Shown: positions 10,358 to 60,030 of the stretch, in pieces
Layout: the number at the start of each line of letters is the position of its first letter
Numbering within the stretch: position 1 is the first letter of the stretch
Source of the DNA: Acidobacteriota bacterium
GTDB lineage: Bacteria > Acidobacteriota > UBA6911
DNA: 64,000 bases
Reading direction: 5' to 3'
NCBI GenBank assembly: GCA_963664705.1
Contig: OY761556.1
Span: 5,056,001-5,120,000, forward strand
Made by a program: the position numbers and the translations under genes
The notes under the pieces: model-generated
The model's database searches: none
The model's input: the letters and a program-made list of their open reading frames with translations, nothing else
What the model was told of the DNA's origin: nothing

Positions 10358-10402
10358 TGCTGCCGAACGTTTTACCGAATAGAACTAATATTTTATTTGC
10401 AA

Positions 10403-10458
10403 TGCCGGGGATGGGAATCAAACCCACACGTTCCTTGCGGAACCCAGGATTTTAGGCC
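10403..10458 (-). mobile_element. Degenerate 3' fragment of tRNA-Leu (att-like core, copy 1)
   Basis: Minus strand GGCCTAAAATCCTGGG-TTCC GCAA GGAA-CGTGTGGG TTTGATT CCCAT CCCCGGC A: anticodon-arm remnant, long variable arm, T arm and acceptor 3' strand. No D arm or 5' strand. Confidence 0.8.
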
Positions 10459-10680
10459 ATTTTCATATGTTCCCATAATTTAGAACATCCCCAATGACAG
10501 TGTACTATCTGCGACTTAGAGTAGCTCTTACTCCTTCTGCTATTTTCGCAGCAATTCGCAATGGTTCACGGTAAGTCGGTTTTGACTGGCCGGGAGGCTG
10601 GTCTCAAAATCATTGATGCTTCGTGGATCCGATCCAAATTCGCGAATGCCCATGCCGCACGCTTCCCGAAAACCATTCAT
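10459..10680. repeat. Conserved arm adjoining the tRNA fragment, homologous to 49362-49515
   Basis: TCTGCGACTTAGAGT at 10508 and 49409, in both cases 105 bp from the tRNA-fragment end. Gapped similarity continues (CCGGGAGGCTGGTCTCAAAATCATTGATGCTT vs CCGGAGGTGTCCAATTACTGATGACTT). Confidence 0.75.
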
Positions 10681-10788
10681 TTGATCCAATTTCTAATAAC
10701 TTTCTCTTCAGAATAATAACTTAGATTTCTGGTGATTTTACCTAAGCATGTTGCCGCGCCATGGTGCACGCTGCCACCGAAGCAAATG
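10645..10788. repeat. Non-coding module B, copy 1 (homologous to 27181-27310)
   Basis: Shared TTTCTAATAACTT, ACCTAAGCATGT and an identical 20-mer CGCTGCCACCGAAGCAAATG (10769-10788 = 27291-27310). Confidence 0.85.
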
Positions 10789-10913
10789 ATAACGCTTGCC
10801 CCCAATGCGGGCTTTTTCGGGCTAATTTGCATATGCGGTGGTATAACTACTACCTGACATTTGAAATCAGTTACCAGACTGCAGCTTGATCAAGATCAAA
10901 AAGGAGATTCCGA

Positions 10914-11366
10914 ATGAACCGATCTCTCTCAATTATTTTAGCCGCATGTTTCTGCTTTGAAGCTCTGTGGGCGGGCGTGGACAGCCAAAAGACGGTTTAT
11001 GTCGGAGGCACTGTCAGCTCGATCAAAGAGCAGACAGAAGGAATTACGTCCACCAGCGACGAGAAGGTCTTCCTGTTTGATTACGGAAAGGGCAAACTCC
11101 AGATTCCTTACGATCGAATCGAGAGCCTCGAGTATGGACAGAAGGTTGGCAGACGTGGAGGGATTGTCAGCCGATGGGTTATAACGAAGAAGCGCAAGCA
11201 TTTCCTCACGATCGGTTACAAAGACGAAAACAGCCAGCAGCAGGCAATGGTTCTTGAACTCGGAAAGGAGATTGTTCGTGTAACGCTTGCTGCCCTGGAA
11301 GCCCGCAGTGGCCACAAGATTGAGTACCAGGACGAGGAATCGCGGAAGAGTGGCAGCGGTGATTAA
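10914..11366 (+). CDS. Conserved secreted hypothetical protein (possible PH-like fold)
   Basis: AAGGAG RBS, signal peptide, YVGGT…IPYDRIESLEYGQ…KKRKHFLTIGY…LELGK. Confidence 0.75.
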   Translation: MNRSLSIILAACFCFEALWAGVDSQKTVYVGGTVSSIKEQTEGITSTSDEKVFLFDYGKGKLQIPYDRIESLEYGQKVGRRGGIVSRWVITKKRKHFLTIGYKDENSQQQAMVLELGKEIVRVTLAALEARSGHKIEYQDEESRKSGSGD

Positions 11367-11530
11367 CAGCCTATAAATTCGGCTGTAAACAGACGCATTA
11401 TCCAAAGGCAGATCTGCTGCTGCATGATTTCAAAGCCTTGCCTTCTCAAAAGGCGAAATAGAATATTGCTTTACAGCTTCGAGTGCAGTGGCAAGTCAAC
11501 GCACTCCATGATGTGGGTTCTCCAAAGATA

Positions 11531-12124
11531 TTACTTGTTGCTTACAAGCAGTTGGAATTGAGAACCGGGCTCGAACTTGATGTCCGGACCCTTTGTACTG
11601 AAAGCTATTGTCATGCCCACTGCGGCGCCTATCGCCGCACCTTGTGCCGCACCTGATCCGCCGCCAACCGCTCCTCCTATAGCCGCACCGGCCGCGCCCA
11701 GCGCCAAGGCACTGAACAACTTCTTTTTGGTCGCCGACTTCCCAATGGCATGGCCCTCATCATCAACCTCTGCGACGCCTTTGGAATTCGTGACAGCCTT
11801 GAGAGTGGCCACTATAGGAACCATGGTCCCGTCTTTCAGGGTCAACGATGTAAAGGAAAATAGAAGCTCTGATTTTCCCGATATTTTGCCGGATGCCTTA
11901 GCCTTGGCTACCTCCGCCTCTATAATCGCGCCTGCATAGGCCTGCGGTTCCAAAACCTGGAGCGTGAATTTATCTCCCTTTTTATTTGCCGAGGCACTTA
12001 GGGGCGTTAGTATTTTGGCAACAAAAGCCTCATTGTTTATCTTCGGCGGTTGCGATTGGGCAAAGCCGGCCGTAAACGCTGCCAGTACCGTCAGGATGGT
12101 TATAATCGGTATGAACTTGCGCAT
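11531..12124 (-). CDS. Secreted TrbI/VirB10-like beta-barrel protein with glycine zipper
   Basis: Signal peptide, LTPLSASANKKGDKF, ASGKISGKSELLFSF, GAAGAAIGGAVGGGSGAAQGAAIGAA and KGPDIKFEPGS. Confidence 0.7.
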   Translation of the reverse strand: MRKFIPIITILTVLAAFTAGFAQSQPPKINNEAFVAKILTPLSASANKKGDKFTLQVLEPQAYAGAIIEAEVAKAKASGKISGKSELLFSFTSLTLKDGTMVPIVATLKAVTNSKGVAEVDDEGHAIGKSATKKKLFSALALGAAGAAIGGAVGGGSGAAQGAAIGAAVGMTIAFSTKGPDIKFEPGSQFQLLVSNK

Positions 12125-12136
12125 AACAATATTCTC

Positions 12137-58495: not shown

Positions 58496-58610
58496 TTTGA
58501 AGCCTCTTCCCATATTAATAATCAGTAATGTCTATGCTTGCCCTCTATATTCCTTTTGCTCCACACTGCAGATGCTCACTGCGCCGATAGTGAGATGATT
58601 CGCGAATGCA

Positions 58611-59123
58611 CTATTTATCGCGGCTAAACAAAATATAGTGTTCCTCCAAGTTCCCCAACAGAGCCCTTTGGCAGGTTGGGAACTGCCTCAAGCACAAATG
58701 AAATACAATGCATTTCCTGCAATCACCAAAGATTACGCAGTGAGTATTCCAACAGTCGCATTTCATCTCGTGTGCTTTTTTAGAGCACGCGAATGCCGCG
58801 CGCATCTCATCTTTTGATACTTTGGGAGTGTTATCTCTCCATTTGTACTTGTTTGGCTGCTCCAGCACGTTCTTTAGTTCTTGCGGTTCGCCGCTTTCTT
58901 CTATGTCGCCGAAAGGGTCCATCATTTTTTGAAACTCTGAAACGGCTTCCGGTTTCAGCATGGATGTGATGACCTCAATGCCTCTCTTAAAAGCATCCGG
59001 GTCAAAGTTGCCCTCTTGGGGTGGCTTGAAGTTCTCCTCCAAGGCCGCTGCCATTGCTTCCTTCTTACCTTCTTGCGTGCGTTCCATGATGAAATCAAAG
59101 AAAAACTTTTGACCGTTTTCCAT
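58611..59123 (-). CDS. Two-domain protein with a helical N-terminus and a Cys-rich DUF6485-like domain
   Basis: AAGGAG RBS and CDCWNTHCVIFGDCRKCIVFHLCLRQFPTC. Confidence 0.72.
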   Translation of the reverse strand: MENGQKFFFDFIMERTQEGKKEAMAAALEENFKPPQEGNFDPDAFKRGIEVITSMLKPEAVSEFQKMMDPFGDIEESGEPQELKNVLEQPNKYKWRDNTPKVSKDEMRAAFACSKKAHEMKCDCWNTHCVIFGDCRKCIVFHLCLRQFPTCQRALLGNLEEHYILFSRDK

Positions 59124-59208
59124 TTGTGTTACTCCTTGCTATGGAATTGATAGGAATATCGGTAGCGAAGGCTCAAAAGTCAACCGGAATTATTTTGACC
59201 CCAGGCAG

Positions 59209-59542
59209 AAGTCGCATGAAGGATTTTCACGATCTTCAAAGCCTTAGCCGGGAATTCTCATTCGAAGCTACCCTCTTGTCAGAGGCCATGAGGAGAACGT
59301 TTGCAGCACGCGGCACTCAATTACCCTTAGGAATACCGCTCGCCCTTACAGCAGAGTTTTTCGACGACACGGACAAAAAGAAGCAATGGACCGCCTTTTG
59401 TCGAAGAAATCGCGGCTATGTTGCCGCTTTATCTTTGCAGCTTGTGTGTGAGGAATTATCTGCGTTTTTGATTCCGATTATACAAGCGCTAAATGGCGGG
59501 TCACCCTTGCCCGGGAAATGGTCGGCACGAACATGGAGCTAG
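59209..59542 (+). pseudogene. C-terminal remnant of an AbiEii-family nucleotidyltransferase toxin
   Basis: SRMKDFHDL…LSEAMRRTFAARGT…QWTAF is the typical AbiEii C-terminus. The catalytic N-terminal part and the abiEi partner are missing. Confidence 0.75.
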
Positions 59543-59593
59543 AAAGAGAGCCAATTAAACAGCTTCGCCAAAGAAGCTCTAATGGGAGAATCA

Positions 59594-59827
59594 ATGGATT
59601 ACGACAAGGAAAAAGTTGATGAGATGGTACTGGCGCTAATGTCGTTGGTTATGCATGGTGACGACAGTGAAGTTCGAGCCTGGAAGAGTATTGATTGGGA
59701 TACAATGGATCGTCTTTACAGGAAAGGTCTGATTTCCGATCCCAAATCAAAGGCAAAATCCGTTGCGTTGTCCAAAGAAGCTGTCGAATTATCCGAATCT
59801 CTCTTTAAAAGACATTTTGGGATTTAG
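59594..59827 (+). CDS. DUF6429 family protein
   Basis: KVDEMVLALM…RAWKSIDWDTMDRLYRKGLISDPKSKAKSVAL; GGGAG RBS. Confidence 0.8.
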   Translation: MDYDKEKVDEMVLALMSLVMHGDDSEVRAWKSIDWDTMDRLYRKGLISDPKSKAKSVALSKEAVELSESLFKRHFGI

Positions 59828-59888
59828 AAACGAATCCAAGCCTTTTTAAGAGGCTCAGGAGTTTGAACCCGGTAAGTTGTTTTTTCAA

Positions 59889-59929
59889 TGCCGGGGATGG
59901 GAATTGAACCCACACGAGCCTTGCGGCCC
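59889..59929 (-). mobile_element. 3' fragment of tRNA-Leu (att-like core, copy 3; variable arm to discriminator only)
   Basis: Minus strand GGGCC GCAA GGCTC GTGTGGG TTCAATT CCCAT CCCCGGC A with an intact T arm. Confidence 0.82.
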
Positions 59930-60030
59930 AACTTATTCCAATCTGTGCAACCTCCAGATGCAGCAAAACGCAAGCGTGAGTGGCAGCGATTTGCGCTCTT
60001 CTCGACATGTGGACGCTTTGACAACGACAA

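Follow-up and report, generated by a model that had tools for sequence, protein, structure and literature searches.

How does a row of gene blocks come to be separated by pieces of a single tRNA gene when no integrase lies among them? This question is raised by a 64,000-nucleotide stretch of an Acidobacteriota genome (G000; the whole stretch is called the window here), in which a first-pass annotation had recognized three minus-strand 3' fragments of a tRNA-Leu gene. The annotation read them as successive islands stacked at a single tRNA-Leu(TAA) hotspot, and left two options for the blocks between them: decayed islands, or passive cassettes moved in trans by an integron-like system.

The tRNA gene and its fragments

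The 6.9-Mb genome has a sole tRNA-Leu(TAA) gene, on the minus strand at window-equivalent positions 115099-115186. BLAST against the genome confirmed the three window fragments, all on the minus strand, at 10401-10454 (att6; tRNA positions 36-88, 96% identical, E 2e-18), 49302-49361 (att5; positions 30-88, 86% identical, E 1e-13), and 59887-59929 (att4; positions 50-88, 95% identical, E 7e-11). Three further fragments lie beyond the window, at window-equivalent 65375, 70110, and 75747. Together with the intact tRNA they are found 1-51 kb past the window end, and the window fragments are the distal half of a six-fragment row behind the tRNA. All six are downstream of the tRNA, co-oriented with it, and 39-105 kb away, and all show the fragment part of the Islander signature (3' fragment downstream, co-oriented, 2-200 kb from the tDNA). 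Five of the six begin at tRNA positions 30-36, in the anticodon arm. ARAGORN reported no tRNA in the window and none at the six fragments, which therefore lack the D arm and 5' strand, and the three in the window are all intergenic, both as originally described. A profile of 41 cores gave seven sites at E <= 2e-13, the next matches being other tRNA genes at E >= 4e-4, and no additional core copy elsewhere in the 6.9-Mb genome. Genome-wide scattering of the fragments was rejected, with none found by this profile or BLAST outside the 105 kb downstream of the tRNA, and the six co-oriented downstream copies bear out the hotspot.

The cores are not uniform. Changes in the anticodon stem or loop are present in att3, att5, and att6, and the loop is missing from att4. 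Variable-arm alleles also vary among cores, and the allele of att4 and att5 is the tRNA allele of another species, G009. Scored against a consensus, an IHF-like motif (<= 2 mismatches) lies within 25 bp of all seven cores, compared to 4.5% of random local 25-mers.

Integrases at the locus

The annotation had predicted the intact tRNA and an integrase beyond position 64000, and both are there, a tyrosine integrase gene being located at window-equivalent 75981-77135. This integrase belongs to a prophage with arm repeats of a different kind. The prophage is lambda-like and makes up the 39-kb segment between the tRNA and att1, in tandem with the rest of the row at the same target; it carries terminase, portal, capsid, tail tube, Int, and HTH_17 (xis) genes, and its arm repeats match at both ends. 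It is the only one of the six segments with a tyrosine integrase inside, and none of the three window blocks has one.

The claim that the window itself holds no integrase stood up to every search made. PF00589 and PF00239 have no match in the window, tblastn with 22 integrases of the genome found no remnant there, Pfam found none in 50 stop-to-stop frames around the six att sites, and a 120-sequence profile of the local integrase family found none in six frames of the window. A serine recombinase as driver was rejected since PF00239 had no match in the window, and an integron integrase since none of 28 TIGR02249 matches was above cut-off (best 87.6 vs 265 bits).

Attachment sites and cargo in the window

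The fragments carry arm DNA of the kind used by integrases; one arm type is called X here and a second BD. The site most distant from the tRNA, att6 (10401..10454, minus strand), is mutated in the anticodon stem and T-loop. An IHF-like motif with two mismatches to the consensus adjoins its core (10386..10398, minus), and its X-type right arm (10455..10576, minus), 77-78% identical to the att3 and att5 arms, keeps one of two ACTTACCGYGA repeats (10564-10576). A degenerate copy of a palindromic-repeat operator follows at 10705..10791 (minus), a weak match with E 5e-4 in the window and 0.054 genome-wide; a promoter scan of 10300-10950 gave no score above shuffles. At att5 (49302..49361, minus) the anticodon loop carries a substitution, the truncated X-type right arm (49362..49444, minus; 88% identical to the att3 arm) is reduced to its spacer, with the arm repeats gone, and past the core there is an IHF-like motif (49285..49297, minus, one mismatch) and then no arm repeats. 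The shortest fragment, att4 (59887..59929, minus), begins in the variable arm and is without the anticodon stem-loop and the upstream arm; past its core too, an IHF-like motif (59873..59885, minus, two mismatches) is followed by no arm repeats. X-type arms in this genome are those of att6, att5, and att3 (outside the window), and no X-type left arm was found anywhere in it. Arms of the window blocks D, E, and F are unmatched or missing and their cores damaged, so that none of the three has a matched intact att pair. Matched arms are kept only by block B, outside the window and nearest to the prophage.

Block F (10401..49301, 38.9 kb) has no integrase and carries zinc-ribbon proteins, an ABC transporter, a sugar uptake locus with a TonB receptor, glpK-glpD-glpF, esterases, and radical SAM. 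Inside it, at 27179..27323 (minus), is a vestigial operator copy without arm or core, 75% identical to the DNA upstream of att6, which is likely a lost boundary dividing block F into two older elements. Block E (49302..59886, 10.6 kb), also without an integrase, holds an MFS transporter, a tannase, a TonB receptor, a two-component system, a duplicated small gene pair, an AbiEii remnant, and DUF6429. Block D (59887..64000 in the window, running on to 65374, 5.5 kb) encodes a tannase, two Fe-S proteins, and MarR, and where it ends, beyond the window, there is a left arm of the BD type. Blocks of the row span 4.7-38.9 kb with genes on both strands and many operons, and the accretion amounts to at least 105 kb, of which the prophage contributes 39 kb and genes for hydrolases, sugar uptake, and glycerol use 65 kb. 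The 53 window ORFs scanned included no relaxase or T4SS family, nor was any conjugation gene detected in the window.

The fragments had been said to sit at boundaries between unrelated gene blocks; the blocks are not wholly unrelated, as the tannases flanking 59887 are 39% identical to each other. Of the two truncated genes reported nearby, the AbiEii C-terminal remnant is real (59126..59542, plus strand; model positions 153-223 of 238), and homology of the gene pair beside it to relatives stops at about 59194. The frame at 9929-10357 gained no support either way, with no Pfam match and no homologue in any of the 29 other genomes of the genus. Further out, the Fic gene at 8563..9729 (minus) has an 89%-identical homologue in G019, where it belongs to a tRNA-Leu stack and comes after an integrase with an internal deletion; from this gene context, the island likely extends past att6. 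Cargo of the window blocks is not att-bounded in relatives, where homologues of glpK (86-90%) and of a 7-kb core of block E (75-76%) occur without a nearby tRNA fragment.

It is conceivable that some of the sites are not separate insertions but copies of one element end made by local duplication or recombination, with fewer than six insertion events. A G000-specific arm variant is indeed shared by att3, att5, and att6 (77-88% identical), a BD left end is common to att1 and att3, and the operator copy appears again at 27.3 kb. However, the differing variable-arm alleles, with the G009 allele at att4 and att5, speak against a single copied end, as does homology between sites that ends 140-300 bp from each core, leaving the cargo unduplicated, and each arm type recurs in other species. 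We consider this explanation very improbable.

A likely intact parent in related genomes

The X-type element is found intact in related Acidobacteriota, with the layout att-ParA-Rep ... operator-xis-Int-arm-att and an O-like wHTH Rep with internal repeats. Int and xis stand at one end with matched arms at L061 plus L068, which share a contig and are separated by about 79 kb, and Int with the arm is also present at L070, L081, and L082. In the G000 copies the gap from operator to arm is about 100 bp, compared to 1.5-1.8 kb in intact elements. Among 21 loci with the X-arm pattern, two (L067, L071) were dropped as chance, having no core nearby, and L072, whose contig begins at the arm, was excluded from the count of right ends. 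The 14 right ends counted include four with a full-length integrase 1528-1813 bp past the operator, one with a decayed C-terminal remnant, and nine with none; in six of these nine, 95-200 bp separate operator and arm. A profile of the operator, derived from intact elements alone, detected att3 (E 6e-13), and att6 and the 27.3-kb copy weakly.

The repeat cluster directly precedes xis-int in all six elements used for this profile, and for this reason a putative operator is the simpler reading; an oriT/oriV kept for trans-mobilization was considered. A sister ParA-Rep element at tRNA-Met in G000 carries a TrwC relaxase and a T2SSE/VirB11-like ATPase.

Intermediate forms exist as well. Integrase remnants abut cores in G010, G002, and G033, another lies about 4 kb past a core in G019, and a 15.7-kb X-to-X segment of G042, which has no integrase, contains cargo 72-85% identical to that at either end of the intact 79-kb element. 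In five integrase-less X ends (G043, L073, L065, L077, G017) the DNA across the deletion is common at 78-97%, so that one deleted form has persisted or spread among different species. None of the 11 core-to-core segments found whole in relatives has a full-length integrase of the local integrase family. The tRNA-Leu stacks have thus lost integrases as a rule, and more uniformly than have the stacks at tRNA-Ala and tRNA-Met in the same genome, which counts against decay.

For BD arms, 12 genome matches, found in 6 of 137 class genomes and confined to the genus, and five metagenome matches showed no adjoining integrase; many relative contigs are short, and a BD integrase could be missed. The integrase near the BD arm of G014 is a small recombinase of another kind, from which a truncated core separates the arm. 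About 280 bp of the BD left end are conserved at 59-77%, with a conserved arm-to-core spacing of about 49 or 59-61 bp. In several species the intact tRNA is immediately followed by a BD or X left arm, and the genes after it differ. In one wetland contig a core is flanked by a BD right arm and a BD left arm, an arrangement that would suit a circle or a tandem; each matched side is only 30-34 bases long. Low-share soil and wetland runs were not taken as evidence of habitat.

Decay or standing cassettes

These patterns could mean that the blocks without integrase form a lasting family of non-autonomous cassettes, excised and re-inserted in trans by same-family integrases of visiting phages or ICEs, in which selection would keep the att arms and a putative X-type Rep-binding repeat cluster. 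The integrase-free whole segments, the kept BD spacing, the missing BD parent, the left arms behind intact tRNAs, and the single deleted X form common to several species all agree with this, as do the matched arms of block B and of a 1.7-kb integrase-less islet at tRNA-Phe. However, no window block has matched intact ends, and the genome has no cognate X-type integrase: the sole same-family integrase at the locus, that of the prophage, is 46-50% identical to X integrases and is paired with other arm repeats. There is also no IntI, cargo elsewhere is not att-bounded, partial integrase remnants of varied length show decay in progress, and the BD argument is tempered by the short contigs. We regard such cassettes as quite unlikely. 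For the three window blocks, the integron-like option is not supported: IntI and a cognate integrase are absent from the genome, the blocks are multi-operon and 5-39 kb in size, and their cargo in relatives lies outside att boundaries.

A related reading of the hotspot across the genus, which we think unlikely, is that it holds true non-autonomous cassettes, comprising the BD family and an X-derived lineage, that moved between species. The X-derived lineage would have lost xis-Int once while keeping both the arm and the putative Rep-binding repeats, and the cassettes would pick up hydrolase and transport operons from nearby and be carried by visiting phage or ICE integrases, somewhat as MITEs of site-specific recombination.

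The probable explanation, in which we have good confidence, is tandem accretion of tyrosine-integrase elements at tRNA-Leu(TAA), followed by decay by deletion into CIME-like remnants. Decay is favored because an intact X parent exists in relatives and exactly its xis-int operon is missing from the G000 copies, and because arms of the window blocks are unmatched and their cores mutated or truncated. Elements would have inserted successively at the anticodon loop, each newcomer replacing the tRNA 3' half and pushing older elements outward. X-type elements would then have lost xis-int by a deletion from just past the operator to the last int codons, and later deletions may have fused neighbors and stripped arms, giving chimeric blocks with non-matching ends. 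The newest segment, the prophage next to the tRNA, still has integrase and xis. Blocks D, E, and F are likely immobile. In one run with the same sequence, unitigs break at each core at a flat depth of 15-19 and contain no att-to-att skip, and contigs of seven other runs gave no trustworthy joint between two G000 att sites; contigs in both cases drop rare forms, and a single raw-read run had 0 reads in the region.

Comparison with known systems

Integrons are polar arrays of accessory blocks between recombination sites, with small, mostly single-gene, co-oriented cassettes and attC sites that fold as single-strand hairpins. The locus here is likewise a polar array of accessory blocks, but it is not an integron: there is no IntI, the sites consist of cores derived from a tRNA and accompanied by arm and IHF-like motifs, and the blocks measure 4.7-38.9 kb and have operons on either strand. 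CIMEs and accretion of ICESt1/ICESt3-type elements were reportedly described by Pavlovic (2004) and Bellanger (2011).

A CIME keeps attL and attR after losing integration and transfer genes, and cis-mobilization is shown for CIME/ICESt1-type systems; as proposed here, an element integrates, decays, and a new one accretes at the target-end site (PMC5704250). The window blocks have lost integration and transfer genes, and matching attL and attR are kept by block B alone, so D, E, and F have decayed beyond the CIME state. Dehalococcoides ssrA islands show many direct repeats of the target gene 3' end within 100 kb downstream, and 15 of 31 lack an integration module and were read as cis-mobilizable or fixed, with metabolic cargo (PMC3146451). 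Downstream 3'-end repeats, integrase-less members, and metabolic cargo are alike here, whereas their target is tmRNA with a serine recombinase and ours a tRNA anticodon loop with tyrosine integrases; this locus also differs in having more than one family of arms, and its first segment is a prophage. Islander places 2083 of 3919 islands at the anticodon-centered site A, and its islands share with this locus an intact tDNA and a displaced co-oriented 3' fragment; its tandems, four of them of three or more, require an integrase in every member (PMC4383910), and it would therefore call only the prophage here. In Prochlorococcus, newer tycheposons push older ones outward, and the islands contain scattered partial tRNAs and integrase fragments, most of their DNA not being active element (10.1101/2020.12.28.424599). 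Tycheposons are a different element family from the parent with ParA, O-like wHTH Rep, and an operator-xis-Int end. Streptococcus phage-ICE tandems similarly have a prophage accreted beside other integrative elements, and there the tandem is excised with the help of the phage integrase as well (PMC13651849); unlike them, neighbors here have no integrase and the window has no detected conjugation gene. In literature searches we found no published account combining Acidobacteriota, genomic island, tRNA, integrase, and tandem, and no description of this family in the literature on non-autonomous integrase-lacking elements.

Significance

The fragments likely mark mobile elements that inserted one by one and then lost their integrase genes. 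Stack formation and decay is a known route for collecting accessory genes, and this is one more example, an ordinary process in a little-studied phylum. The locus is useful because one element family can be followed from its intact parent through partial remnants to complete deletion, a series that shows how integrase-less stacks arise. Island finders that filter on integrases would overlook all segments but one of the six. The importance would be greater if mobility in trans were established for block B or the BD family, as this would be a non-autonomous class of site-specific cassettes.

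A tandem array at tRNA-Leu(TAA)

The window lies on a single-contig 6.9-Mb genome, G000, whose sole intact copy of tRNA-Leu(TAA) is at window-equivalent 115099-115186 (window numbering run on past 64000). Six 3' fragments of this gene lie downstream of it, all co-oriented with it, and we number them outward from the tRNA: att1 (75747), att2 (70110), att3 (65375), att4 (59887), att5 (49302) and att6 (10401). A profile of 41 cores found no further copies in the genome. The three fragments that the first-pass annotation had reported are real and share the minus strand; att6, att5 and att4 correspond to tRNA positions 36-88, 30-88 and 50-88, at 96, 86 and 95% identity. 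From the tRNA outward, the six segments measure 39.4, 5.6, 4.7, 5.5, 10.6 and 38.9 kb, with a GC content of 0.51-0.54 against 0.53 for the genome. Truncated genes had also been proposed near the boundaries. The AbiEii remnant is real. The frame at 9929-10357 has no protein family, and none of 29 other genus genomes has a homologue; that it is a truncated gene is therefore unproven.

The same annotation placed the intact tRNA and any integrase past 64000, and both are there, the integrase in the tRNA-adjoining segment. This segment, which holds the stack's two PF00589 matches (27 genome-wide), encodes a lambda-like prophage: genes for terminase, portal, capsid, tail tube and ParB are present. 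One end carries HTH_17 and a 384-aa integrase terminating ~180 bp from att1, and an arm repeat of its own type is present at both ends. A second, Xer-like tyrosine recombinase lies among the tail genes on the opposite strand (G000:C1:5149711-5150766). None of the other five segments contains a tyrosine integrase or a serine recombinase, nor any remnant of one; they include the window blocks D (att3-att4), E (att4-att5) and F (att5-att6), in keeping with the first claim that the 64 kb has no integrase.

Five of the six fragments start at the anticodon arm, which is site class A of Islander (PMC4383910). An IHF-like motif with <=2 mismatches to the consensus lies <=25 bp past 7/7 cores, compared with 4.5% of random local 25-mers. 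Short direct repeats, which we take to reflect integrase arm type, flank many cores and sort into families recurring across the genus. In G000 the BD family marks both ends of block B (att1-att2) and the left end of block D. X arms mark right ends at three sites: att3, att5, where the repeats are lost, and att6, where one remains; no X left arm occurs anywhere in the genome. The anticodon stem or loop is changed at att3, att5 and att6, and att4 has neither anticodon loop nor arm. Given these arm families and damaged cores, none of D, E and F has two intact ends that match. Immediately inside att3 there is an N-terminal remnant of an IS91-like transposase, and a split rve_3/HTH_32 transposase closely follows att2 (together L001:1789-2211 and L001:4917-6035). 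In some relatives a GC-rich, hairpin-like insert, single or in two copies, interrupts the core near the T arm (L070:2100-2230, L072:140-230, L065).

Probable decay of X-type elements, and the BD family

The main evidence for decay is a series of X elements that runs from intact through remnant to deleted forms. The double X repeat occurs at 21 loci in the contigs scanned: 19 belong to Acidobacteriota, and the other two, with no core nearby, were judged chance matches. Two loci ~79 kb apart on one contig together delimit a whole element. In order, L061 on one side has tRNA-Leu, arm, ParA and a wHTH protein containing palindromic repeats; L068 on the other has a palindromic-repeat cluster (a candidate operator), HTH genes (HTH_17 among them), the full integrase, arm and core. 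Among 14 X right ends, four retain a full integrase 1528-1813 bp past the cluster (L068, L070, L081, L082), one a decayed C-terminal piece (L075), and nine none; in six of these nine the cluster lies 95-200 bp from the arm. At att3 this distance is 95 bp. Not every one of these ends is a separate case: G043 and L073 match at 97% in this stretch, and L065, L077 and G017 have common filler. A cluster profile built only from elements retaining xis-int matched att3 genome-wide at E 6e-13, with weak matches at 27254-27323 (E 0.003) and 10705-10791 (E 0.054). Cargo found at either end of the intact element recurs in the X-to-X segment of relative G042, which has no integrase. Among themselves, X integrases share 67-79% identity; their nearest protein in G000, the prophage integrase, is 46-50% identical to them.

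A 121-kb sister element at tRNA-Met in G000 (G000:C1:6401474-6522611) has Int-xis at one end. At the opposite end are ParA, AbiE and a wHTH Rep with repeats, and the interior holds a TrwC relaxase, a VirB11-like ATPase and DruA; the wHTH protein is similar to HTH_36 and to O-type replication proteins of phages. We read the element as a probable ICE from the family of the X parent and, because it carries the relaxase and VirB11-like ATPase, the X family is itself likely ICE-like.

Among 137 class genomes the BD arm pattern occurs 12 times, in six genomes that all belong to the genus, and it was also matched at 5 metagenome loci. In the flanking sequence covered, no cognate integrase adjoins it at these 12 and 5 loci, many of them on short contigs. 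Its left end is conserved across species for ~280 bp past the arm at 59-77% identity (G000:C1:5131400-5131690 and 5121040-5121330; L025, L103, L107, L111). This stretch contains a second, degenerate sequence like a tRNA tail, another IHF-like motif and half a core site that hardly varies. The strongest argument for true non-autonomous cassettes comes from BD; we consider this reading improbable.

Cargo in related genomes

Core genes upstream of the tRNA are syntenic, and the DNA downstream differs in every species examined, so that conserved gene order downstream, which would speak against a stack of islands, was found in none. A full integrase of the family is present in 0 of 11 whole core-to-core segments (G014, G023, G033, G042, G043), among which G033 has one integrase remnant and G023 three other tyrosine recombinases. 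A glpK match is present in 6 of the 29 genus genomes and is 86-90% identical in five of them; no tRNA fragment lies near the four high-identity loci examined. The 7-kb core of block E is unbounded by att in G014; in G043 this tannase-TonB-two-component cluster sits on the upstream side of the intact tRNA-Leu, 11 kb away and inverted relative to it (G043:C7:591563-598617). Cargo recurring in the hotspot comprises a radical SAM gene (G043), a small gene pair (G017) and Fic beside a deleted integrase (G019). Judged from these genomes, cargo does not move as att-bounded units. The integron-like cassettes first proposed as an alternative fail on this point, and also because none of 28 TIGR02249 matches exceeds the cut-off for an integron integrase.

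Window 58220-59123 encodes a tandem pair of small Cys-rich paralogues, 60% identical and without a Pfam family; DNA 90% identical to the pair occurs in the G017 tRNA-Leu island, and contigs from soil and wetland runs also cover it. Window 12137-18225 and 25276-26262 encode three proteins with zinc-ribbon repeats (584, 1331 and 328 aa) that match no other family.

The stretch 54001-64000 was found whole in four sequencing runs, which may include the assembly's source. In the one run examined, the assembled sequence breaks at every core, depth stays level at 15-19, and no joint links one att to another. One run taken as raw reads had 0 reads on the region. One wetland contig joins BD right arm, core and BD left arm, with short matching sides; four more metagenome runs yielded no trustworthy att joint.

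Other stacks and known systems

G000 also has stacks at tRNA-Ala(GGC) (5 fragments, mostly beside integrases, with a tRNA-Arg fragment as well, 230 bp past the gene), tRNA-Met (3) and tRNA-Gly (2), and a 1.7-kb integrase-less tRNA-Phe islet with matched arms (together G000:C1:5584226-5753532, 6316671-6522687, 1548753-1552890 and 4132102-4133904). Fragments of tRNA-Phe(GAA) 3' ends with arms were found inside tRNA-Leu(TAA) stacks of G014 (L005:11985-12035 and 15639-15687) and G023 (L037, G023:C1:27049-27096). The two anticodon stem-loops are one base apart, and one integrase family therefore likely uses both tRNAs.

The array resembles Dehalococcoides ssrA, where the target's 3' end is repeated in tandem and 15 of 31 islands have no integration module (PMC3146451). 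Other sources define CIMEs and an integrate-decay-accrete model (PMC5704250), describe older elements pushed outward with scattered partial tRNAs in Prochlorococcus (10.1101/2020.12.28.424599), and report Streptococcus phage integrases able to excise tandem neighbours (PMC13651849). In six nosocomial species, only 6% of att-delimited islands have no integrase vestige (10.64898/2026.01.13.699239), which makes five of six here high, though that set had been picked for conjugation features. Our literature search found no description of such stacks in Acidobacteriota. We conclude that the feature works like tandem accretion with decay, and that the window blocks D, E and F have gone beyond the CIME stage. 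They are not integron cassettes. Tandem accretion with decay has already been described in other bacteria, and the G000 stack is probably a further instance of it.
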